Shown: positions 275-47,977, counted from the first letter of the stretch. The stretch: 64,000 nucleotides of DNA from an uncultured virus (IMG/VR IMGVR_UViG_3300005201_000018) (IMGVR_UViG_3300005201_000018), one strand, 5' to 3'. The notes: generated by a model from the letters alone, not told the origin. Translations and numbers: made by a program.

Positions 275-1741
275 GTGCAAGGCACAACCACACTCCTCAC
301 TACGCACGAAATGGCCTACGCTCTAGATATACACCCGTGCACACTGGAAGCCCTGGTAAACAACGGTATTATACCGCATACCTATATACAACCGCCAGGC
401 TCTGACACTAAGCAAGTCCGTTTTAATCCATACAGCGTGGTCGAATGGCTCCAGTCTGAACCACAGATCAAAAACTTGACAGGAAAAAATTACCTTGACG
501 GTCTGCGCAAACAGTATAAAACATACAGTCCTACCATCCGGGCTCTTAAAAACCTTAATGCTCAATTTGCACCAAAACGTGCGCCAAAAGGCTACAGCTT
601 GAGTAAAGTCCCAAGTAAAAAATACGGATTTTTATATTACGTCCGATATATCAGGAACGGAAAACTTATCCCTTCCAGATGGAATACACATACTAACAAT
701 CTTAAAGCAGCCGAACAATTCGCCCGGAACAACAGAGGAGAAATACTCACCGCTTATGACGCCGGGCGCACCGACTACGCAAATAGTATCCTCCGTATCA
801 TGGAGACGTATTATGAAAAAGACTCGGAATACCTCGAGGACGCGATGGACCTTGGAAGGAACTTCTCCGATAGAACACGCGCCAACTATCTTGGCGTAGT
901 CAAGAATGAATTTGTACCATTCCTCAAAGCGCGTGGCGTTAAATGTTACGCCGATATAACCCTAAAGATTATTACGAAATTTAGAATACACCTGCGCCGA
1001 AAAGGGAACAAACCACAATCCGTTAATAAGTATTTCGGCGCAATAAGAACGATGTTCGATCATCTTATGTCAGACGGCGTGATTCCTGACAACATAACGA
1101 AAAAAGTAAAAGCCCTTGACGAAGAAAAGTATATAAGGCAACGCGGCTGTTACGAAATTAGTAAGTTGTACGGTATATTCAAGCGCAAATGGCGCGACGA
1201 AATAGCGTACTTACTATGCCTGATAATATACAGCACAGGTCTCCGCAATAGTGAAATAGAAAATATAACCCTCCAGGATATCATTAAAATTAAAACGTGC
1301 AGGTTTATCAATGTTAAGACAAGCAAAACAGTCAACGGTGTACGTATCGTGCCGCTACATCCGCTTGTTTACCAGAAAATAATTACATATGCAAAGAAAA
1401 ATGCTAAAACCGCTGATGAGACGATCTTCTGCTTTCCTGGGCGCAAACACGATGAGTTCTACAAACGCGCCAATCTAACCCTCGGCAAGCGGCTACGAAT
1501 GACTGAAGCAAACCTTGAAGCTGAAAATATAACGTTCTACTCCGGCAGGCACTACTGGAAAACCCTTATGAACGCGCACGAACTAGGCGACATTGAAGAA
1601 ATCTTCATGGGCCACAAAGTCAGCGCCGATGTCGCAAAACGCTACAACCACCGCGATAAACAAGGACAACAGCTTGTGCTTAAAAAAGCACGGGAAGTCT
1701 TTGCTATACTGGATAAAACGTTATTTAAGCAAAGAAGCTAA
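275..1741 (+). CDS. int: Tyrosine recombinase/integrase with N-terminal excisionase-like HTH
   Basis: GLRNSE (R), KT (K), YSGRH, MGH, RYNH (Y) catalytic motifs; N-terminal LLTTHEMAYALDIHPCTL HTH-like segment. Confidence 0.9.
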   Translation: MQGTTTLLTTHEMAYALDIHPCTLEALVNNGIIPHTYIQPPGSDTKQVRFNPYSVVEWLQSEPQIKNLTGKNYLDGLRKQYKTYSPTIRALKNLNAQFAPKRAPKGYSLSKVPSKKYGFLYYVRYIRNGKLIPSRWNTHTNNLKAAEQFARNNRGEILTAYDAGRTDYANSILRIMETYYEKDSEYLEDAMDLGRNFSDRTRANYLGVVKNEFVPFLKARGVKCYADITLKIITKFRIHLRRKGNKPQSVNKYFGAIRTMFDHLMSDGVIPDNITKKVKALDEEKYIRQRGCYEISKLYGIFKRKWRDEIAYLLCLIIYSTGLRNSEIENITLQDIIKIKTCRFINVKTSKTVNGVRIVPLHPLVYQKIITYAKKNAKTADETIFCFPGRKHDEFYKRANLTLGKRLRMTEANLEAENITFYSGRHYWKTLMNAHELGDIEEIFMGHKVSADVAKRYNHRDKQGQQLVLKKAREVFAILDKTLFKQRS

Positions 1742-39473: not shown

Positions 39474-40673
39474 ATGGCGTTGCAGGTTAAAAGCCTTGAC
39501 GAAGAGACAAACGAGCTCGCTGATATATATGATGAGCTTATAAAGCCAAAAAAGCTCTTCCGTAACCACAATAACAAGCTGTATCTGGCACTGCGAGCTT
39601 TTGCAGCCGGAAAAGCTGGTCTTATGGATGCGGCTTTAGCGCTGCATAACAAGTTTGACCCTCGTTATTGTGAGGATATTGACCTTTACTCGACAGCGAA
39701 ACTGGTAGGAACGGAGTTCAAGAAGGGTTCCGGCAGCCTGCTTTATATTACTGTTACCAACACGAGCCAGCAACAGTCCTATGTTCTCTATGCGGGAACA
39801 TACAACTATCAGTCTTCGAGCGGCATGATCTTTTCTTTTGAACTACCGACTGATTATTCTTTCGACCCTGAAGAGGAAAAACTTGTCATAGCTGTTTCAA
39901 GCGAAAAGGGAAAGTTTGAGGTTACAAGCAGTGCCGATATTGCGTTATTCCGTACCGACAATGATCCGATTAACAAAAATTTTTCTTTTTCCTGTCAAGA
40001 CAATGCAGGGCAACTAGGGTATGAGGATGAAACACCATTTGACTTCCGTACGCGCATTTTGAACGATGTAGATCGCCAAGACCATATTAAAGAGCTTGAA
40101 ATAAAAATACGAAATTTGCCGGGTATTCTTGAGTGTACTTTAGTTGTAAATGAGGATACAGTCCAGCAAGAATATGATTCTATAATGTTAGCCCCAAAAG
40201 AGTTGTTGATAATGATAACCGGTTCTCCAACAGATGATATAGCAAGGTTAGTTTGCGAGACCGTACTGTATGATACACATCAGACAGATCCGTCGTTAGT
40301 AACTTATTATTATAACGATTCATACATAAATGGACGTCGTCCTGTTTACTATAAATTCCATGATACTACTGATTTCTCTCTTTCGATAAGCTATGAATAT
40401 AACAGCGACACTCTGAAACCGGCACTAATAGAAGCGGCGATGCTTGGGTTGTTTAAGCCATATACATGTATGGCAACACATCTTTCTTTGTTCAACGAGC
40501 ATGATGCGTATAAAATTTTGCAAAATCTAGATATGCCCGGCGTAGTAATTTTGAACGTCGATGTTTTTAACGACCAAAATGAAGATGTCCCCTATATAAG
40601 GATTCCCAAGACAAGGCTGCCACATTTAACCGGCATATCATTTAGCGCTGTCGTATCAGGAGGTGCTCTATGA
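39474..40673 (+). CDS. Baseplate J-like wedge protein
   Basis: GYEDETPFDFRTRI and IRNLPGI motifs. Confidence 0.75.
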   Translation: MALQVKSLDEETNELADIYDELIKPKKLFRNHNNKLYLALRAFAAGKAGLMDAALALHNKFDPRYCEDIDLYSTAKLVGTEFKKGSGSLLYITVTNTSQQQSYVLYAGTYNYQSSSGMIFSFELPTDYSFDPEEEKLVIAVSSEKGKFEVTSSADIALFRTDNDPINKNFSFSCQDNAGQLGYEDETPFDFRTRILNDVDRQDHIKELEIKIRNLPGILECTLVVNEDTVQQEYDSIMLAPKELLIMITGSPTDDIARLVCETVLYDTHQTDPSLVTYYYNDSYINGRRPVYYKFHDTTDFSLSISYEYNSDTLKPALIEAAMLGLFKPYTCMATHLSLFNEHDAYKILQNLDMPGVVILNVDVFNDQNEDVPYIRIPKTRLPHLTGISFSAVVSGGAL

Positions 40674-41536
40674 AGCAGCCCTTCAGGTATTTTAGGGGTG
40701 AGTTTAACGGAGCATACCTGTATCCTTTAGTGACGTGTCCAAACTATGTGGTAAGCGATATTTTGGATGAGTTTGTGTACCAAGTTCTTCATCAATGGAA
40801 ACTTGCGGATGAGGTAGCATCTGGAGAAATACCTATAAGAGATAAAGATATTTTTAGCGTAGCTCAAATTGGTGGGCTTTGTCAGTTATATGCGTACGGT
40901 ATGTCTTCGTATGGTTCAGTATATTTTACGCAAAGTCACAAAGTTTCAGAACAAGAAAGAAGCGACCGCGGTCTCTTTGATATGGATACAAACCAGTTTG
41001 ATTTTGTTAGAACACAATATGATAGTTATTCTGATGACATAGTAAACGAAGCATCCAGTACCAGACGAATCAGTTTTGTACCTGAAGGTAGAGTTCCGTT
41101 AGGCTATTTGCCGGAAGGCAGTGACTTGTATACTGATGAAGGCGAAATTATGTGGGACAACCTGTTGTCTGAACCGCCGGAGGACGATACTCCTTATACT
41201 CCTTTTTATGGAGAGGAGTTTCTAACGCACGAGAATTTTTTCAAGCAACGAATGTTTTTAACGGTTGAAATATTCAAACTTCTCTTTGAATGTTTACAAC
41301 GCATACGGTACAATGGCCCATCAATAGCGTCTTTCCTTGAGGTAACTCGTATATTGTGTGATGTATATATTTATGACATTGAAATCATTTCTTCCGGCAG
41401 ATTTTCTATTGTACATTATAGCACAGATAGCTCTTTTGACCTAGAAAATAAGGATATGCGTACATTTGCATGGCAAAAGCTGTGCGCACAAAAATTCAAA
41501 CTATTTACGCTTGCGCATAGAGAAGAGGAGGTGTAG
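40670..41536 (+). CDS. Probable baseplate wedge (gpI-like) protein
   Basis: Position between J-like and fibre genes; ATGA overlap. Confidence 0.5.
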   Translation: MKQPFRYFRGEFNGAYLYPLVTCPNYVVSDILDEFVYQVLHQWKLADEVASGEIPIRDKDIFSVAQIGGLCQLYAYGMSSYGSVYFTQSHKVSEQERSDRGLFDMDTNQFDFVRTQYDSYSDDIVNEASSTRRISFVPEGRVPLGYLPEGSDLYTDEGEIMWDNLLSEPPEDDTPYTPFYGEEFLTHENFFKQRMFLTVEIFKLLFECLQRIRYNGPSIASFLEVTRILCDVYIYDIEIISSGRFSIVHYSTDSSFDLENKDMRTFAWQKLCAQKFKLFTLAHREEEV

Positions 41537-41537
41537 T

Positions 41538-43961
41538 ATGTCACTACAAGGTGATCTTCAGCAAATAAAAAGTGTTGTTACCGGTCTTGAAAATAACCCT
41601 GTTGCTCGTCTTGCGTATACCCAAAGCGCTTTTGACGCCGACAATGTGGACGGAGTTGCTAACTTTAACAACAGCGCGGAACAAAACATACCGCTTGCTA
41701 CGAAGACCGATTTTAACCCGACAGTTCTTACAAAAGGTATCCGTGGTGACTGTGCTTCCTATCCACGGAACGCATGGAACCACTATCTTGGCAGAATGTC
41801 CTACAATCTAAACAAATTGGTACAAAAGATTGGTGCTCTAATAACCGTTCTTTTATCTATGTTGTCAAAAGGCGGCTTTAGATATGATAACCAGGCTACC
41901 TATAGTACTGGGAGCATCTGTTATGACATTGATAGTAACAATATAATTACCTGGTATAAGCGTAACAGCACATATTCAAATGGACCTGTTCCGCTTACCG
42001 ATACATATTGGGACGAACTTGCTGATAAGGTTTCCCTGGAAGCCGTTGTTGCAAATGTTGAAAACAGCCTTACGAGTATATCAACAACTATGGCATTAAG
42101 CGCTGCAAAAGGAAAAGAATTACAGGATACTAAGGCTCCTATTAACACTATACTTATGGATGCAGCGGAGTCTAACACGTTACCAAATACGTCGAATACA
42201 GCGCTTACAGCGCTGCTGCAAACAATGCGGAACAATATAAAGCATTTGTTTAACAACAAGGCGAACAAAACAGAGGGTGTTTCTAGCGGTACTGTAGGAA
42301 CTGCGATAAGTACGGCTGTTAAGACTGCTACAGTTGATAATTTTATGTATGCCGAAAGTAATAACAAGCTGTTGATACTCACGTTTACTAATGGTAATTC
42401 TGCTGCTGCAACAAAACTAAATATAAATTCGCAGGGCGACAAGGATATTTGGTACAAAGGTGCACTAACATCAACAACAAACCCGTGGGTATCTCCAGCA
42501 GGCAGCAGTGTTTTATTACAGTATGATACCGCGAATAACCGGTTTAATATCATTGACGATGGGTTGGATAGTAATCGTATAAGCAGTGCAATTACAACTA
42601 CATCAATCAGCACTGCGACAAAAGTGGTGTCTGTTCCTAATTTTATCCTTTCCAGGAGCAGTGGAAAGTTGTTGGCGCTTACATTTACTTACGGTAACTC
42701 TGCTGCTGTACCCGTTTTGAACGTGAATACACAGGGAGCAAAGCCTATCTGGATTAACGGAGCTGTAACGTCATCGTCAAATCTGCTAACACTTGTTGCC
42801 AACGCTACCGTATTTTTTCAGTATGACCTAACAAACGACCGCTTTAATGTTGTCAGTATAGTTGACGGCTCGGCCTATGGGCTTGTTCGTTTCCCTGTTA
42901 TAGCTACAACCAGTAATGTCGCAAAATCCGCGTTGCCCTATACCTACTTTGGTGCCAGTACCGAAGTACATCTTAATAACTACAGGGAAGCCGGAGAGTT
43001 TACCTTTTATAACATATCTTCAAGCTCAACAGGTTTCCCAGCAGGCTTCGGAACAGGGACAGCAAATTCAGCTAGTTTGAAAGTAATATTGTTTTATGGG
43101 GATACTGCCGGACTTCAGATTCTTCGTAAACGTGGAACGCGCCAAAAATGGGAGCGAATCTTTACCGCTGCCAGTACGTTTACAGCATGGGAGCTCGTTA
43201 GCGGGTCTGAAGTAGGCGATGTATATATTCAATACCCTAACACAAGGGAACCGGGTCAAAAGTGGCCTAGTGAAAACTGGGTAGATTGGACGGAACGTGT
43301 TGAATTTTATGAGGTTTCTACAAGTGTACCTGCATATACAACGTATGCTGCAAACCAAAGCTATAATGTCGGCGTCTATGTATTGTATACACACAAGGAT
43401 AAGAGCCAGGAAATATTTAAGTGTAAAAATGCCATTGCAAGCGCTCCTGCCGTACTTGACCCTGTTAACTGGACACCATTGCGTGATGACACAAATGCAA
43501 ACTATGTTACAACGTGTGTAGAGAGAATCAGCATCCAGGCAACATGGGGCGCGACTGCGTCTACTGACTTAGCTATAGGAGTCACAATATCGGGTGCTCC
43601 TGTAAGCACATATAACGGTAAACGCATAACGGGTAGATATACGCCGGGCGGGAAATTCGCTGGGTTTGCCGGTGGAAATAGACCACCGTATATAAATGGC
43701 GGGGTAGCTCCGGATGTCCAGCGGGCCATTACAGGCGCGGCGCAGTGGCTTTATATGGGATACCCGGCCTGGGGTACAAATGTCAGAGAGGGGGCCTTTT
43801 CTTTTGGCGCGGCGCTTGGATCCTTGGCAGGAGAAACGGTTGGTACAGCGGTCAGTGACTATCAAGGCTCTTTGAGGTTTAATTCTGCCGATTCCGTCCT
43901 CACCAGCCCGGAAAACAGTCCGCGTACCATGTCTGTACGCTACTGGAGGCGTGTGGCTTAG
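41538..43961 (+). CDS. Tail fibre with switchable C-terminus (cassette A currently fused)
   Basis: ALSAAKGKEL fibre motif, duplicated LTFT.GNSAA..LN.N.QG.K.IW domain, knob-like segment; ends SPRTMSVRYWRRVA. Confidence 0.9.
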   Translation: MSLQGDLQQIKSVVTGLENNPVARLAYTQSAFDADNVDGVANFNNSAEQNIPLATKTDFNPTVLTKGIRGDCASYPRNAWNHYLGRMSYNLNKLVQKIGALITVLLSMLSKGGFRYDNQATYSTGSICYDIDSNNIITWYKRNSTYSNGPVPLTDTYWDELADKVSLEAVVANVENSLTSISTTMALSAAKGKELQDTKAPINTILMDAAESNTLPNTSNTALTALLQTMRNNIKHLFNNKANKTEGVSSGTVGTAISTAVKTATVDNFMYAESNNKLLILTFTNGNSAAATKLNINSQGDKDIWYKGALTSTTNPWVSPAGSSVLLQYDTANNRFNIIDDGLDSNRISSAITTTSISTATKVVSVPNFILSRSSGKLLALTFTYGNSAAVPVLNVNTQGAKPIWINGAVTSSSNLLTLVANATVFFQYDLTNDRFNVVSIVDGSAYGLVRFPVIATTSNVAKSALPYTYFGASTEVHLNNYREAGEFTFYNISSSSTGFPAGFGTGTANSASLKVILFYGDTAGLQILRKRGTRQKWERIFTAASTFTAWELVSGSEVGDVYIQYPNTREPGQKWPSENWVDWTERVEFYEVSTSVPAYTTYAANQSYNVGVYVLYTHKDKSQEIFKCKNAIASAPAVLDPVNWTPLRDDTNANYVTTCVERISIQATWGATASTDLAIGVTISGAPVSTYNGKRITGRYTPGGKFAGFAGGNRPPYINGGVAPDVQRAITGAAQWLYMGYPAWGTNVREGAFSFGAALGSLAGETVGTAVSDYQGSLRFNSADSVLTSPENSPRTMSVRYWRRVA
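43684..43717 (+). repeat. Inversion site 1, inside the fibre gene
   Basis: caccgtatataaatggcggggtagctccggatgt. Confidence 0.9.
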
Positions 43962-44241
43962 GTAACCCTGCGCCAGTACCTAACGGACATGGTTCTGGGT
44001 GATGCCTCCGGGCCAACTGGGACTGCGAGACCAGAATCAAACTTAAAAGCTGAATTGGCGTTGCTTGTACCGCTACTCACAAGCTGGAAGCCGAATATAT
44101 TGTCAGAGAAAGGAACGCGCTTAAAAGGCCCTGTCAAGTTTTCATCACTAACTGCAAGATGTGCACCGTAGGGTGTATAGGTAAATTGCCCAACTATGGA
44201 TCGGCTAACATCGGGCGCCACCCCGCCATTTATATACGGTG
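43958..44241 (-). other. Silent fibre C-terminal cassette B
   Basis: PYINGGVAPDVSRSIVGQ...SPRTMSVRYWRRVT*. Confidence 0.9.
44208..44241 (-). repeat. Inversion site 2
   Basis: Reverse complement caccgtatataaatggcggggtggcgcccgatgt. Confidence 0.9.
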
Positions 44242-44260
44242 AATTGTTTTAGCCGGGAAG

Positions 44261-44845
44261 TTATGCCGCGCTGATATCCTTTAGTTCCGCGTCAAGTGTC
44301 TTCCAATTTATCCGCAGCGATGCAATTTCTGACTGGACTCTTCGTACCGTTTCATCGGGGTCAGGCTCACCAGGATCAGGTGGTATTCCCAAATATATTT
44401 CGCGGAGTGCCCGGAGTTGCTCCGTTTCTATCCGGCTAATTTCTGCCTCAATCTGCGCAATAGCTGACTGCTTCTCTGCCTTCGCTTCCTCAATCGTATC
44501 AATTATCCAGTGTCTTGTTTGCTGGTCAAATTTTCTGAACGGGTTGTCCGGTGGCACCTCTTTTGTCTCGTTTTCAGCAAGTTCTTCATCGTAGTCATAA
44601 ATATCCCTTGGTGATCCGTCGTGTATATTATATACGCGTCCTTTATTATTTATGCGCTTACCTTGTAGTACGAGATCCGTATCTGATATGCGAAACCAGC
44701 TACCATCAAACCATTCTACCTTGTCTCCAGGAGAACCACCCCAATTTAATGGGTGCCTAATCCAGTCAGCTTCTCCAACCGGTATTTCTCCTCCCTGCAC
44801 ATCGCAAATCCTGCCGTCAACAACTGTATGCCATCCACCATCCAT
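44261..44845 (-). CDS. Probable tail fibre assembly chaperone inside the invertible region
   Basis: GGAGG RBS; EVPPDNPFRKFD....WIID plus C-terminal coiled coil, Tfa-like. Confidence 0.65.
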   Translation of the reverse strand: MDGGWHTVVDGRICDVQGGEIPVGEADWIRHPLNWGGSPGDKVEWFDGSWFRISDTDLVLQGKRINNKGRVYNIHDGSPRDIYDYDEELAENETKEVPPDNPFRKFDQQTRHWIIDTIEEAKAEKQSAIAQIEAEISRIETEQLRALREIYLGIPPDPGEPDPDETVRRVQSEIASLRINWKTLDAELKDISAA

Positions 44846-44908
44846 TTTGTCCCTCCGTTATAAATAGGTTATCACAAAATTATTTATTGTCAAGTGAAAT
44901 AATAAATT

Positions 44909-44942
44909 CACCGTTTATAAATGGCGGAGTGGCGCCGGATGT
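44909..44942 (+). repeat. Inversion site 3
   Basis: caccgtttataaatggcggagtggcgccggatgt. Confidence 0.9.
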
Positions 44943-45171
44943 TAGCAGGCCGATTACCGGCGCTGTTAAAGATGGTCCCAATTATGGCCTTATTTCTTAT
45001 GCTTCCGAGGTAGGTGGAGTATTTCGCAGAGGTTCCGCTACTCCCTATTGCCTTGCCGGCCACGGGCAACCTGGTTACGCACTTGAGATTGATTCCTCCT
45101 TAGTCAACCCCGCCGGCCCGGAAAATTCTCCCAGAACCATGTCTGTGCGTTATTGGCGCAGGGTTGCCTAA
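44909..45171 (+). other. Silent fibre C-terminal cassette C
   Basis: PFINGGVAPDVSRPITGA...SPRTMSVRYWRRVA*. Confidence 0.9.
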
Positions 45172-45418
45172 GCCACGCGCCTCCAGTAACGGACAGAGAG
45201 CGCGCGTGGACTGTTTTCGGGGCCTATTGGGACAACTAGGCCGGAGTGTATTTCAGCAAACGCAGAGTACCCTGGGCCATAGTTGCCACCGCCTGCACTG
45301 CCAACACCGGTTGTAATTACGGCACCCTCGCCATTCGTACACCCGCCGTAGGTTATCGAGTGCTTTCCCCAAATTTCCCTGATAACATCGGGCGCCACAC
45401 CGCCATTTATATACGGTG
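45168..45418 (-). other. Silent fibre C-terminal cassette D
   Basis: PYINGGVAPDVIREIWGK...SPRALSVRYWRRVA*. Confidence 0.9.
45385..45418 (-). repeat. Inversion site 4
   Basis: Reverse complement caccgtatataaatggcggtgtggcgcccgatgt. Confidence 0.9.
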
Positions 45419-45424
45419 AATTAT

Positions 45425-46021
45425 TTATGTCGTTAACCGCTCACGCCTGAACAGTCGGACTGTCTGCCTATGTACACCAAATCGTTCGCCAATCTCGACG
45501 TTATTTTTCCCTTCCAGAACCATTTTCCGTATTTCGTTCTCATGCCCTGAAAGTCTTACGTTCGTAACCCTCCCCGGACGGCGACCGAGCACTTTTCCCT
45601 CTGCTTTACACCGAGCCAGGGCTTCCTTGGTACGTTGCGCGATTAAATTTCTCTCAATTTCAGCCGAAAGTCCAAACGCAAAGGCGAGCACCTTACTCTG
45701 TATATCGTCCCCTAAGCGATAATTGTCCTTTATGGTCCATATTTTAGCCCCTATAGACAGGCAATACTGCAAAATCGACATTATCATAAGCAGGCTGCGT
45801 CCAAGCCTCGACAGTTCAGAACAGATTATCAAGTCGTCCTGTTTAACGGCTTTAAGAAGCGCCCCGAGCATCCTTTTTTCAAGAGTTTTTGTTCCGCTAA
45901 TTGTCTCTTCAATCCACTGACCAACGCATATTTTGTTGTTCGCGCAAAACTGTTCGATTTCAAACCGCTGATTTCTAACTGTCTGCTTATCTGTGCTGAC
46001 CCTTACATATCCATATACCAT
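45425..46021 (-). CDS. Serine recombinase/DNA invertase, Mpi-like
   Basis: YGYVRVSTDKQ catalytic Ser, SELSRLGR, LGDDIQSKVLAFAFGLSAEIER, C-terminal HTH. Confidence 0.92.
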   Translation of the reverse strand: MVYGYVRVSTDKQTVRNQRFEIEQFCANNKICVGQWIEETISGTKTLEKRMLGALLKAVKQDDLIICSELSRLGRSLLMIMSILQYCLSIGAKIWTIKDNYRLGDDIQSKVLAFAFGLSAEIERNLIAQRTKEALARCKAEGKVLGRRPGRVTNVRLSGHENEIRKMVLEGKNNVEIGERFGVHRQTVRLFRRERLTT

Positions 46022-46055
46022 ATACTCCTCCAAAAATTTTGATAAATTTTAGGGT

Positions 46056-46089
46056 AAAGTATTGACATTTGAGAAAAGCATGGTACGGT
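46056..46089 (+). promoter_or_regulatory. Late promoter motif 6
   Basis: AAAGTA-TTGACA-16 nt-TACGGT. Confidence 0.8.
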
Positions 46090-46110
46090 CATGTAGGTTT
46101 TGGAGGCGGT

Positions 46111-46563
46111 GTGGACTTTAAGGTAAGCAGAAAAGAAAAACGCTGGCAGGCAGACGGACCTGTAGACGTTCTTGTAGACAACGTTTGTGATCTATACCCG
46201 GTATTCGCTAGTGACCCAATATACGCCGGCCAAGCCATACAAATTGGTCAGGATACGATTACCGGTCAAGACAGGGAAAATATAGTTATGGATGTCGAAA
46301 TCATTGATGACGACAGGGCTGAACTTTTAGACCGAGCGATGTTTGCGTTAATGAAGCAGCGCGGTGCGGATCCTGTTGAACTAAATGATGGCGTCCAATG
46401 GGCCGAGGCTGTCATAGGCGAAGTACCTCCTTCGGTAATACTCCAGCAAGTTCAGTCTGCTGTTTTTGAAGAAGGGCCTGGAGTACGGGCAACGGCTGCC
46501 GTTATTAAGAACGGCAGCAGAGAGAACTTATTTTTTAAGGTGGAACTTACCAATGCTGTTTAA
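46111..46563 (+). CDS. Possible sheath-initiator/baseplate wedge protein (gp25/Mu gp46-like)
   Basis: GGAGG plus GTG 46111; KQRGADP...DGVQW motif; family call tentative. Confidence 0.45.
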   Translation: MDFKVSRKEKRWQADGPVDVLVDNVCDLYPVFASDPIYAGQAIQIGQDTITGQDRENIVMDVEIIDDDRAELLDRAMFALMKQRGADPVELNDGVQWAEAVIGEVPPSVILQQVQSAVFEEGPGVRATAAVIKNGSRENLFFKVELTNAV

Positions 46564-46579
46564 TGGTTATTTTTTGCCA

Positions 46580-46613
46580 AAAGTATTGACTTCCATTACT
46601 CACATGGTACGTT
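46580..46613 (+). promoter_or_regulatory. Late promoter motif 7
   Basis: AAAGTA-TTGACT-16 nt-TACGTT. Confidence 0.8.
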
Positions 46614-46634
46614 TATGTGTTAGGAGGGGCAGAG

Positions 46635-47351
46635 ATGCAAGGCAAAATTGAGGCAGATTTAGCAACAATACCGCCTATTAACATGGTTATATTTTTCTGT
46701 GGTATTGCGCTGCTGCTTGTGCTAATTGCAGTTATTATACACAAGCTCGGTATTATAAGTATTGGGCCGATAAAGCGCGAGCAACGCGGCCAGTCGTCCA
46801 TGTACAACATGAATGAAGAGAACTACAAGCTGGATGATACGTACCGGAAACAGATGCGCGAAGTAACCAGTAAAATGAAGCGGTATATAAGCAACATATT
46901 TGCCGAGCTGCATGTCTGCACGTTGTCACGGTTAGCTATATCATCGGTTATACTATTCCCGATGTATGAGAGTGTCGCGAATAATCACTTTACCACAGAG
47001 TTGATGCCCGAACAATACGGCGCGTACCGAGAGCGCATTATAGAGGCAATGCAAGAAGAATATAAATCTTTGTCTACGGCCTCAATGGATATAAAGTGCG
47101 GTAGTTCCACTATGCCGTCGTGGAACACCATAGAGAGTCAGATTATTGGATGTATTGATATATGGCTCAAAAAAATCAGCAGAGAAGTCTTACTGTGCTG
47201 TGAGAAGAAGGTTAAGGTGTACAACAAGTACATAGTGGACTTTGAAGCGGCAAAAGATACGTACCGTGCCGGCATCGCCAAAAAATGTGTTGAAAAAAAT
47301 GAAGGGTATATAACGGTACTACGTACCAGAACAAACAGGGGTGCGCTATGA
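46635..47351 (+). CDS. Single-TM protein, candidate holin or lysis regulator
   Basis: N-terminal TM helix; coupled to the endolysin by ATGA overlap. Confidence 0.5.
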   Translation: MQGKIEADLATIPPINMVIFFCGIALLLVLIAVIIHKLGIISIGPIKREQRGQSSMYNMNEENYKLDDTYRKQMREVTSKMKRYISNIFAELHVCTLSRLAISSVILFPMYESVANNHFTTELMPEQYGAYRERIIEAMQEEYKSLSTASMDIKCGSSTMPSWNTIESQIIGCIDIWLKKISREVLLCCEKKVKVYNKYIVDFEAAKDTYRAGIAKKCVEKNEGYITVLRTRTNRGAL

Positions 47352-47977
47352 TTCATTTCGATTTTATTAACGAGGTACTTGCCCTATTTGAAGGCAGTGC
47401 GTATACAAAAGGGTACATACCTTGCAGCGGTGGTACATACTATGGTGGTACGGAACCTGACAAAGGAGAACCGTTAGGTGCATCCGGCGTAACAATTGCC
47501 ACAGGTGTAGACCTTGGGCAACAAACGAGTACCGGTCTTAGGGCTATGGGCCTGTCGTTAGAAACCCTGGCTGTTCTTACTCCATATATTGGGTTGAAGA
47601 AACAATACGCCGTTCAAAGATTGAAGGAAAAGCCGCTCACTATTACGCAAGAGCAGGTAAAGGAGATTGACGATGCGGTACATAAAACATATATCGCCGA
47701 TGCAGCCAGGAAATTTGGGCAGGAACGCTTCGAGGCTGCTCCAAAGGAAGCGCAAGCGGTGGCAGTGTCTCTCTGTTATCAGTTTGGAAATCCGTCCCGG
47801 TTGGCAAGCCCCGGTCTAGGTCTTGCTTGGGACGCAATTAAAGCCGGTAACTATAAAAGTGCAGCGCAGTATTTGACAGATCTAAGACTGTGGAATAAAG
47901 ATCACCAGTTCATAAGCCGCCGGGAACAAGAGGCGGCACTGCTTGGCGCTATAAATGCGATCGGGTTTGCCATGTGA
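47348..47977 (+). CDS. Endolysin, pesticin C-terminal-like muramidase
   Basis: FEG...GYIP, SGVTIATGVDLGQ, PYIGLK, SLCYQFG, SRREQEA. Confidence 0.85.
   Translation: MIHFDFINEVLALFEGSAYTKGYIPCSGGTYYGGTEPDKGEPLGASGVTIATGVDLGQQTSTGLRAMGLSLETLAVLTPYIGLKKQYAVQRLKEKPLTITQEQVKEIDDAVHKTYIADAARKFGQERFEAAPKEAQAVAVSLCYQFGNPSRLASPGLGLAWDAIKAGNYKSAAQYLTDLRLWNKDHQFISRREQEAALLGAINAIGFAM

Follow-up and report, generated by a model that had tools for sequence, protein, structure and literature searches.

A tail-fibre gene in the genome of an uncultivated phage, probably a temperate phage of termite-gut spirochaetes (Treponema), ends in what we take, with a probability of about 0.8, to be a programmed multiple-inversion fibre switch (shufflon) of a temperate tailed phage. 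Within the analysed stretch of 64,000 nt (the window), four like sites in both orientations, four alternative gene ends and an adjoining recombinase were found (Table 1).

Table 1. Features of the fibre locus, in order of position in the window.
Feature	Position	Strand	Basis or remark
Tail-fibre gene, present form (constant part + tip A), 807 aa	41538..43961	+	ORF; product on record
Tip cassette A (fused to fibre; present state)	43683..43961	+	Open frame, 91 codons
Site 1	43684..43717	+	Within fibre gene, codons PPYINGGVAPDV; 19-mer scan, repeat search, alignment
Tip cassette B (silent)	43958..44242	-	Open frame, 93 codons
Site 2	44208..44241	-	19-mer match 44223-44241; repeat search, alignment
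194-aa gene, no family assigned	44261..44845	-	ORF between sites 2 and 3
Tip cassette C (silent)	44908..45171	+	Open frame, 86 codons
Site 3	44909..44942	+	19-mer match; repeat search, alignment
Tip cassette D (silent)	45168..45419	-	Open frame, 82 codons
Site 4	45385..45418	-	19-mer match 45400-45418; repeat search, alignment
Serine DNA invertase, Mpi family, 198 aa from ATG 46021	45425..46021	-	NF009949, Pfam, PHROG

The fibre gene, which most likely starts at the ATG at 41538, is preceded by baseplate-wedge-like genes (phrog_6). Its product gives a weak Phage_fiber_rpt match (E 7e-4, below cut-off) and has no close or near-identical relatives on record, and its C-terminal 250 aa are homologous to fibres adjoining related invertases. 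The long fibre frame runs on into cassette A only, and stop codons lie a few codons upstream of the site in B, C and D; cassette A alone is fused to the fibre, as the sequence-only reading had claimed. Its description of four open tip frames with a fixed start, a divergent middle and a fixed end is likewise borne out: the frames are open over 43683-43958(+) for A, 43961-44242(-) for B, 44908-45168(+) for C and 45171-45419(-) for D; counted from the conserved Pro codon, they comprise 82-93 codons, and cassettes B, C and D share 46-47% identity with A, with 27 invariant columns that cluster at the start (P.INGGVAPDV) and the end (PE.SPR..SVRYWRRV). The A/B and C/D pairs stand tail-to-tail, the stop codons overlapping by 4 nt in A/B and the C/D pair also overlapping by 4 nt. 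Receptor specificity is presumed to reside in the divergent middle of the tips; the tip fold was poorly predicted (pLDDT <50 at residues 146-240), so it is an assumption that the variable middle forms an exposed receptor-binding surface.

Using the 19-mer CACCGTWTATAAATGGCGG with at most 3 mismatches, four matches were obtained in the window, exactly the four sites, where none were expected from 100 dinucleotide-preserving shuffles, and a looser site-family pattern returned the same four matches only, against 0.30 expected. Alignment of the sites and their flanks gave 36 invariant columns out of 71, with a common block covering 34 bp, and the direct pairs D1 and D2 and inverted pairs I2-I5 from a repeat search of the window correspond to the sites. 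These results uphold the earlier claim of four 34-bp sites in +,-,+,- order and all four of the positions given for them, with the qualification that, for the two minus-strand sites, 44208 and 45385 mark the lower end. The left half AATTCACCG is kept in the three silent sites, the fibre site reading AGACCACCG; retention of this untranslated half in silent sites suggests constraint at the DNA level. The best dyad centre of site 1 falls at 43692/43693 (47% complementary, compared with 38% for the next best), which may be regarded as a candidate crossover point only. In three related loci (L140, L002 and L004), the sites within a locus do not agree at the bases of the presumed dyad centre, which means that the true centre is at another place or that some of the relatives are frozen in part. 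In the window's sites the central AT is palindromic and so would not set directionality on its own.

The recombinase ORF spans 45425-46033(-), and its likely start is the ATG at 46021 (MVYGYVRVS), with GGAGGAG just upstream. Its stop codon (45425-45427) is separated from the end of site 4 (45418) by 6 nt, in agreement with the earlier placement of the stop just past that site. Judged on the whole-protein score, the enzyme reached 288.1 bits against the cut-off of 272 with NF009949, the curated NCBIfam equivalog model of the Mpi family, which in a control was above cut-off in 1 of 14 well-known genomes; the invertases of the relatives L002-L006 scored 302-306 bits and that of L007, which lacks ~20 internal residues, 237 bits. 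Matches to Pfam Resolvase (6.4e-31, residues 6-147) and to the DNA invertase family phrog_125 (1.1e-42) were also obtained, together with weak HTH matches at the C-terminus (residues 161-197; GerE, E 0.0016, below cut-off). Gin is the best solved-structure relative (E 3e-13), and in the alignment to Gin over residues 5-158 YVRVSTDKQ pairs with the catalytic-serine motif YVRVSTNDQ. Close kinship with the Din type (Gin/Cin/Hin/Pin/Min) was rejected: the window's enzyme is only ~30% identical to the Gin/Cin/Min group and ~32% to E. coli phage invertases, and in the tree a long branch with 100/100 support parts Mu Gin and P1 Cin from 39 Mpi-family rows. The claim that the enzyme is Mpi-like rather than Gin/Cin-like therefore holds. 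A relative from a Bacteroides MAG shares 63% identity, and the nearest relative in the tree is L059 (paired at 98/84 support), which carries no such shufflon beside its invertase.

In the proposed mechanism, the phage's own small serine recombinase would pair any two oppositely oriented sites of the four and invert the DNA between them. Because the sites lie in frame at the PP(Y/F)INGGVAPDV codons, inversions involving site 1 would join the constant fibre body of 716 residues to different tips of 82-93 residues. Inversion in silico gave fibres of 807 aa with tip A (present state), 809 aa with B (1x2), 798 aa with D (1x4) and 802 aa with C (3x4 then 1x4); the four tips that the sequence-only reading had derived from these inversions are thus reached in frame, while the receptor-binding role that it gave them is an assumption. 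If the tips set host range, as we infer, one phage lineage would yield virions with four adsorption specificities.

The sequence-only reading had included neither the 194-aa ORF on the middle segment nor a fourth inversion, 2x3. The 194-aa protein has no Pfam, PHROG or NCBIfam family match and no close relatives on record; a profile search with it returned 173 cluster representatives at E<=1e-3, and its homologues sit within or beside related shufflons. Its AF2 model is confident (pLDDT 97.3). We read it as a proposed fibre-assembly or fibre-adaptor protein, chiefly from complex modelling: with the fibre C-terminal domain the score was 0.69 (runs 0.69, 0.71 and 0.58), with contact agreement of at least 67% and partner pLDDT of at least 78, compared with 0.00 as the best of three controls. 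Among reference cases, 116 of the 157 solved complexes scored this high, as did 2 of the 215 mismatched pairs; these counts are only a rough guide here, since the alignments were our own and the fibre was entered as three copies. In the predicted docking, the N-terminal beta domain contacts mainly the constant part of the fibre C-terminal domain. DUF4376 was found on 2 of 9 scanned distant relatives, and as leads only, the Atlas lists DUF4376 clusters together with Caudo_TAP_N and its structure rows give TM 0.44-0.56 ('under the bar') against Caudo_TAP and DUF4376 clusters. Membership of Caudo_TAP (PF02413) by sequence was rejected, as Pfam gave no match, hhalign found no relation to Mu U (probability 2%), and just 1 of 65 family members showed a weak match (E 0.0079).

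The gene might instead encode a recombination accessory factor or be an unrelated passenger, which we consider unlikely, if far from negligible. It lies inside the shufflon in five loci, antisense to the fibre in four of them (the window, L140, L007 and L062), where it is co-directional with the invertase, and in the sense direction in one; in L005, it adjoins the invertase outside the shufflon. This arrangement would suit an accessory factor or passenger, as would the missing sequence link to Caudo_TAP and the fold searches, which returned helical hairpins only. For the latter, no Foldseek match at E<=0.001 was found in PDB or BFVD, and the VIA list was full of matches to the helical hairpin (residues 115-194), so that the N-terminal domain was barely tested. 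Against it stand the contrast between the complex model and its three controls, the DUF4376 of distant relatives, the Atlas lead, and a length and position beside the switching tip that match U/U' of Mu and P1. If the assembly or adaptor reading is right, this single protein would serve all four tips. The orientation of its gene could change by 2x3, which would flip that gene alone, or by 1x4. It is tempting, but doubtful, to extend this to a two-layer switch, in which four tips share one adaptor encoded on a third segment that inverts independently, giving the locus 16 DNA states, in which the orientation of the adaptor gene decides whether functional fibres are made, and which forms a portable module of invertase, adaptor and tips, specific to termite-gut spirochaete phages.

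The same design was found in ten further distinct contigs, one of them in a termite-gut Treponema MAG, with homologous fibre ends and with a like site at the head of the cassettes (2-5 per contig). In eight related contigs (L002, L003, L004, L005, L006, L007, L062 and L140), the distance between the end of an Mpi-family invertase and the first site is 30-70 nt, and L140 and L062 repeat the exact layout of invertase, cassette pair, 194-aa gene and cassette pair with the fibre. The related phages L002 and L140 are collinear across the invertase (80.5% over 667 nt) and differ by an inversion of the middle segment, which bears the 194-aa gene (85.9% over 469 nt), the homology of the inverted segment ending at the site core. 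On comparative grounds only, the window's shufflon is probably active. A frozen or decaying shufflon, in which inversion is gone or very rare and the fibre in effect always bears tip A, is an improbable alternative. In the viral and metagenome collections, the exact site pattern had no match and no flipped form of this phage was seen, and the variable presumed centres in L140, L002 and L004 indicate that family members can drift. However, all four of the window's sites share an unbroken 12-bp block (TATAAATGGCGG) and keep the 34-bp frame with at most 2 differences from their consensus, the three silent cassettes are open with both fixed ends kept, and the invertase has its full length and its serine motif and scores higher than the family cut-off. 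Silent cassettes of spirochaete surface antigens are exchanged by recombination or gene conversion. That such homologous exchange swaps the cassettes here, with the recombinase serving another purpose (resolution or a distant target), is most improbable: the fixed ends (34-55 bp at the start, ~50 bp at the end) could suffice, repeats I1 (116 nt, 79%), D1 and D2 are present, and Mpi-family enzymes do occur in other contexts (B124-14 and L059), but the invertase adjoins the first site in those eight contigs, the sites alternate strictly, the non-coding left half-sites are conserved, and the L002/L140 homology breaks exactly at the site core.

Read as a shufflon, the locus resembles Gin of Mu, Cin of P1 and Min of the plasmid-prophage p15B in its phage-encoded small serine invertase beside the fibre gene, crossover sites within the reading frame of the fibre, silent cassettes for alternative C-termini in both orientations, and a fibre-assembly-type gene within invertible DNA. 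It differs from them in using an Mpi-family enzyme and in having a single assembly-type gene, placed on a segment that could invert by itself, instead of one per tip. Din invertases (Gin/Cin/Hin/Pin/Min) need a Fis-bound enhancer inside the invertase gene for inversion, and P1 has such an enhancer annotated. By the annotation of Mu and P1, the window's invertible region is also smaller (~1.7 kb, compared with 3.06 kb for the G segment and 4.26 kb for the C segment), and so is the exchanged tip, at 82-93 codons compared with 335 aa and an accompanying chaperone gene in Mu, in agreement with the earlier claim of a short swapped tip. The master promoter invertase Mpi of Bacteroides fragilis, of the same family by the NCBI curated model, inverts promoter segments in 13 regions scattered over the chromosome (as described in PMC4747536), whereas the window's enzyme is phage-borne and would rewrite a coding end, and the only sites in the 64 kb are the four of the fibre locus. 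TaqI_C specificity ends of Eco57I-type methyltransferases, bounded by inverted repeats beside an invertase, were seen in L032 and L127 and resemble the gene-altering inversions known beside Mpi-family recombinases. Milman et al. 2023 (PMC9881135) described Mpi-family annotation as enriched beside predicted programmed inversion targets (odds ratio 16.1); in the portion of that paper drawn on here, the long-read-confirmed tail-fibre cases are COG5301-type or Mu-like prophage fibres, and Mpi-family enzymes are not tied to fibres.

Multi-cassette fibre shufflons are already known from the accounts of the Min multiple-inversion system and Rin in PMC6109161 and of BV01-like phages in a preprint (PMC13596623, Sept 2026). 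According to the latter, BV01-like phages of Phocaeicola vulgatus carry a recombinase-flanked multi-cassette shufflon of ~1.7 kb over the distal tail-fibre end, active by read data, with three cassettes, six isoforms that differ in stop position, and the 10-bp motif TGGGAGAACT. The two are alike in size, multiple cassettes and flanking recombinase, but the window has four cassettes, the host there is in the Bacteroidaceae, and the motif was absent from all 57 loci examined. Rin of Bifidobacterium prophages, as PMC6109161 describes it, is also phage-encoded and exchanges short receptor-binding modules at the C-terminal end of a gene whose N-terminal part is constant, using in contrast a tyrosine recombinase and 11-bp sites.

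The window's locus is a familiar kind of host-range switch, built with an unusual (Mpi) enzyme family. With a tail-fibre shufflon, a single phage genome can hedge its bets across hosts or receptor variants, and the window and its ten relatives arrive at the same solution with an Mpi-family invertase; the swapped modules are very short (~90 residues) and there is a single shared, predicted fibre-binding protein. The hosts of this phage and its relatives appear to be termite-gut Treponema, for which, to our knowledge, almost no phage biology has been described, and what is known to us of shufflon mechanism derives almost wholly from enterobacterial systems of the Gin/Cin/Min group. The locus, whose sites measure 34 bp, whose enzyme has 198 aa and whose substrate spans 1.7 kb, offers a compact, testable model for the site choice of Mpi-type invertases and for how they might enforce inversion without the Fis-enhancer system of enterobacteria, and for mapping the residues of a small tip that determine which receptor is chosen.

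Allowing up to three mismatches, the 19-nt core CACCGTWTATAAATGGCGG occurred four times in the 64-kb window, with 0 expected from 100 shuffles, and a looser site pattern derived from relatives found only the same four sites (0.30 expected). When the four sites were aligned with their flanks, 36 of the 71 columns were invariant. These results confirmed the four sites of alternating orientation that a sequence-only reading of this DNA had reported. Each site, translated in frame, reads (P/S)P(Y/F)INGGVAPDV and opens a frame that, counted from the conserved Pro codon, runs for 91, 93, 86 and 82 codons in cassettes A, B, C and D, respectively. The four cassettes are 46–47% identical, and their invariant residues cluster near the beginning and within the final 16 residues (PE.SPR..SVRYWRRV), in agreement with the fixed start and fixed end described in that reading. 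A is placed tail to tail with B, and C with D, their stop codons overlapping by 4 nt. Only cassette A continues the long fibre frame, whose 807-aa product is recorded on a 68,753-bp contig, and stop codons stand just upstream of B, C and D. The invertase ORF ends 6 nt past site 4, and the segment between sites 2 and 3 is filled by a 194-aa ORF that the earlier reading had missed. Since the sites, the frames, the fusion of cassette A alone to the fibre gene and the invertase stop just beyond site 4 were all found as claimed, the underlying observation stands.

Features of the window discussed in the text (positions in nt; sites by start position)
Feature	Position	Strand	Remark
Integrase	275–1741		
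Baseplate-wedge-like protein	39474–40673		phrog_6
Fibre frame, through cassette A	41538–43961		
Fibre sub-domain	43329–43487		residues ~40–92 of the 249-aa C-terminal chain
Site 1	43684	+	34-bp element; region 43684–46021
Site 2	44208	-	34-bp element
194-aa ORF	44261–44845	-	
Site 3	44909	+	34-bp element
Site 4	45385	-	34-bp element
Invertase ORF	45425–46033	-	likely start ATG at 46021, behind GGAGGAG
Repeated element, first copy	46040–46094		
ORF	46069–46563	+	
Repeated element, second copy	46564–46618		
ORF	46617–47351	+	
Pesticin-type lysozyme	47348–47977		endolysin candidate; PF16754, 9.9e-27

Inversions were then made in silico between pairs of sites. The inversion 1×2 gave an open fibre with cassette B (809 aa), 1×4 one with D (798 aa), and 3×4 followed by 1×4 one with C (802 aa), so the alternative tips that had been proposed for these inversions come out in frame; 2×3 and 1×4 each turn the 194-aa gene onto the fibre strand. 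An all-against-all blastn for near-identical contigs in other arrangements returned duplicates (L005=L061=L144, L002=L139, L007=L142) and a single informative pair, the related contigs L002 and L140 from one metagenome. The two align collinearly across the invertase (80.5% over 667 nt) and in opposite orientation across the segment that carries the 194-aa gene (85.9% over 469 nt), where their homology breaks off at the GGCGGC of the site that flanks it. The exact site pattern had 0 matches in the viral contig and metagenome contig collections, and no close relatives of the fibre or of the 194-aa protein were found on record. Collectively, we consider the finding real and the mechanism put forward earlier, an invertase-driven inversion that presents multiple fibre tips, its best explanation, with a probability of roughly 0.8.

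When the cassettes, invertase and 194-aa protein served as queries, ten further distinct contigs with homologous fibre ends and like sites were gathered. Two cassettes were found in L003, L005 and L146, three in L007, at least three in L006, four in L004 and L140, and five in L002; L062 has four sites, and L001 carries the fibre and one silent cassette. In 8 of the 10, an Mpi-family invertase ends 30–70 nt ahead of the first site, and L140 and L062 reproduce the exact layout of the window, namely invertase, cassette pair, 194-aa gene, and cassette pair with the fibre. In L002 (sites at 1187, 1719, 2375, 2630 and 3135), two cassettes lie head to tail (WRRVA, two stop codons, RPF...), and the five sites fall into spacer sub-types, two being identical over 39 nt and the others differing; some site pairs of this contig may be unable to recombine. 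At ~2985–2996 of the four-cassette L004, a scaffold NN gap and a short duplicated CCCTTC coincide exactly with one site, where an assembler would break if the population were mixed in orientation.

The fibre-side half-site found throughout the family is AGACCACC, which encodes NRPP, and the half-site of the silent sites is AATTCACC, which lies in never-translated DNA; as it is nevertheless kept there, this sequence conservation argues for a constraint at the DNA level, that is, putative recombinase binding. Over 21 family sites, the best dyad centre was between 43692 and 43693, with a complementarity of 47% (13 bp each side; next best 38%) and the form CCACC-N10-GGCGG. Those central bases, however, are exactly where sites within one locus differ in L140, L002 and L004, and the blocks that stay invariant are ACCCTT(T/C) and GGCGG. 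The site as a simple perfect palindrome around this centre was thus rejected, which leaves 43692/43693 as a candidate crossover point.

The invertase has a resolvase-type catalytic domain (6.4e-31), matched PHROG 125 'DNA invertase' at 1.1e-42, and scored 288.1 bits against the NCBI equivalog model 'master DNA invertase Mpi family' (cut-off 272); of 14 well-known genomes used as a control, 1 gave a score above this cut-off. Gin ranks first among the solved relatives of the enzyme, with an E-value of only 3e-13 and the serine motif aligned, and enterobacterial phage invertases are ~32% identical to the enzyme. A tree of 41 rows was built from the window enzyme, 16 of 54 viral loci, 20 of 80 genome loci, L140, the Bacteroides phage B124-14, Mu Gin and P1 Cin, leaving out the locus L025, which has a stop within its translated match. 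In this tree, a 100/100 branch split Gin and Cin from all other rows, and the window invertase paired (98/84) with that of L059, from a termite-gut Treponema MAG. The profile score and the phylogeny, the two recombinase comparisons suggested by the sequence-only reading, therefore support its view of the enzyme as Mpi-like rather than Gin/Cin-like. The Mpi family proved broad, with relatives encoded by 556 of 602 candidate stretches of the genome collection, in Spirochaetota, Bacteroidota, Pseudomonadota and other phyla, and blastn of the locus against phage records gave a single match, of 242 nt at 69%, inside the invertase gene. The gene of the nearest relative (L059, 7001–7588) lies in an AT-rich stretch without fibre cassettes or a 194-aa homologue, and its 3′ end showed no convincing inverted repeat. 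Among named phages, B124-14 (L056/L058; record 44660–45313) has the closest invertase, with 61% identity and an Mpi-model score of 342.7 bits. That gene belongs to a replication/regulation module, where a nuclease gene and a small 'mismatch repair' ORF border it and no fibre gene is close by.

As a phage genome, the window also encodes an anti-repressor, a portal protein, a head protease and a replication block of helicases, DNA polymerase, primase, thymidylate synthase and topoisomerase. As in P2- and Mu-type tail modules, the fibre gene comes after the baseplate genes. Its product gave a weak fibre-repeat match below the cut-off (E 7e-4) and eight matches in a set of 5.8 billion proteins, of which only itself was close, the next being 58% identical over 33% of the query; the constant fibre part gave three pattern matches in the viral contig collection, none of which was confirmed. 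The monomer model of the C-terminal domain had a mean pLDDT of 61 and fell below 50 in the cassette part (residues 146–240). Fold searches with this domain returned only matches of Z<5, between a 45–50-residue sub-domain and chitin-binding-type modules or phage fibres. The sub-domain is confidently modelled and belongs to the constant part before the switch point, and its best match (Z 4.8, rmsd 1.4 over 45 residues) is too weak for naming a fold. Beyond the invertase gene, a repeated element, AAAGTATTGAC followed ~20 nt on by CATGGTACG, occurs in two copies 524 nt apart, each just upstream of a + strand ORF; it is promoter-like or operator-like and may serve the beginning of the lysis block as a phage-specific regulatory site. 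Two small ORFs without a known family precede the lysozyme gene.

For the 194-aa protein, no Pfam, PHROG or NCBIfam family was matched, tblastn against phage records gave no match, its family profile found nothing below E 0.1 among PDB sequences, and hhalign against Mu U returned a probability of 2%. A profile search collected 173 cluster representatives of its family, 46 of them at E≤1e-30. The AF2 model (pLDDT 97.3, pTM 0.77) predicts an N-terminal beta domain (residues 1–115) and a long helical hairpin (117–193), which dominates the match lists of the fold searches, and these named no family. Three leads point toward fibre-assembly proteins: Atlas structure rows from tail-fibre-assembly clusters at TM ~0.5, DUF4376 in 2 of 9 longer distant members scanned (P0112 and P0118), and a length and gene place that match U/U′ of Mu and P1. 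A weak Caudo_TAP match was present in 1 of 65 members. Other longer members carry NTP_transf_2 (P0033) or DUF2971 (P0088), and the N-terminal beta domain looks modular, joined to varied C-terminal parts.

Three copies of the last 249 fibre residues were modelled together with the 194-aa protein, both supplied as alignments. The complex scored 0.69 (runs 0.69, 0.71 and 0.58), the best of three controls scoring 0.00; among solved complexes 116 of 157 reach 0.69, as do 2 of 215 mismatched pairs, counts that are only rough here because custom alignments and multiple copies were used. Contact agreement was at least 67% and partner pLDDT at least 78. The tightest predicted contacts join residues 14–18 and 38–40 of the 194-aa protein to fibre-chain residues 22–28 and 114–116, which precede the site (chain residue 159) and belong to the constant part. 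The model supports binding of the 194-aa protein to the fibre C-terminal domain and, as the predicted contacts fall in the constant part, fits a single such protein serving all four tips. Five loci have the gene of this protein inside the shufflon: in four (the window, L140, L007 and L062) it runs with the invertase and against the fibre, and in L002 it has the sense of the fibre. In L005 the gene lies outside the shufflon. A promoter and terminator scan of 41000–47000 was uninformative (10 promoter-like sites vs 11.1 expected; 5 terminator-like vs 6.3).

The analysis covered 135 invertase loci, and in 114 the sequence extended 700 nt or more past the gene. In 15 of these 114 (14 distinct contigs), an inverted-repeat arm adjoined the invertase 3′ end; among the loci examined, the fibre-type arrangement was confined to the Treponema-like clade. 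Elsewhere, other Mpi-family invertases (61–64% identical; L032 6590–8300 and L127 4190–6400) adjoin long inverted repeats of 137–160 nt (99–100% identical) that flank a spare TaqI_C specificity domain facing the end of a 1047–1119-aa Eco57I/MmeI-type methyltransferase. This non-fibre arrangement is of the invertible-specificity switch type described by Milman et al. (2023), who report an enrichment of the Mpi-family annotation next to inversions predicted to alter genes (odds ratio 16.1; PMC9881135).

Among known fibre shufflons, BV01-like Phocaeicola phages are described as having an active three-cassette one of 1.7 kb (September 2026 preprint, PMC13596623); the site motif given in that text differs from ours and was absent from the 57 loci searched. 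Rin is described as a tyrosine-recombinase analogue (PMC6109161). In the literature, supplements aside, we found no description of an Mpi-family invertase driving a fibre shufflon, nor of one in spirochaete phages. Judged from its sequence, the window locus is in function a putative fibre switch of the Min/Gin/Cin type, but its invertase belongs to another family and its invertible region is ~1.7 kb, compared with 3.06 kb for the G segment and 4.26 kb for the C segment. That only a short tip is swapped, as had been claimed, is borne out by cassettes of 82–93 codons, where the Mu counterpart has 335 aa plus U. Unlike those systems, the window has one shared, predicted fibre-binding gene, carried on a separate invertible segment. 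Termite-gut Treponema or Spirochaete MAGs supply all of the five best invertase matches (72–77%), and Treponema primitia ZAS-10 comes next; L062 is part of a Treponema MAG, on a contig of 75.6 kb. From this binning and the invertase kinship, the host of the phage is probably a termite-gut spirochaete.
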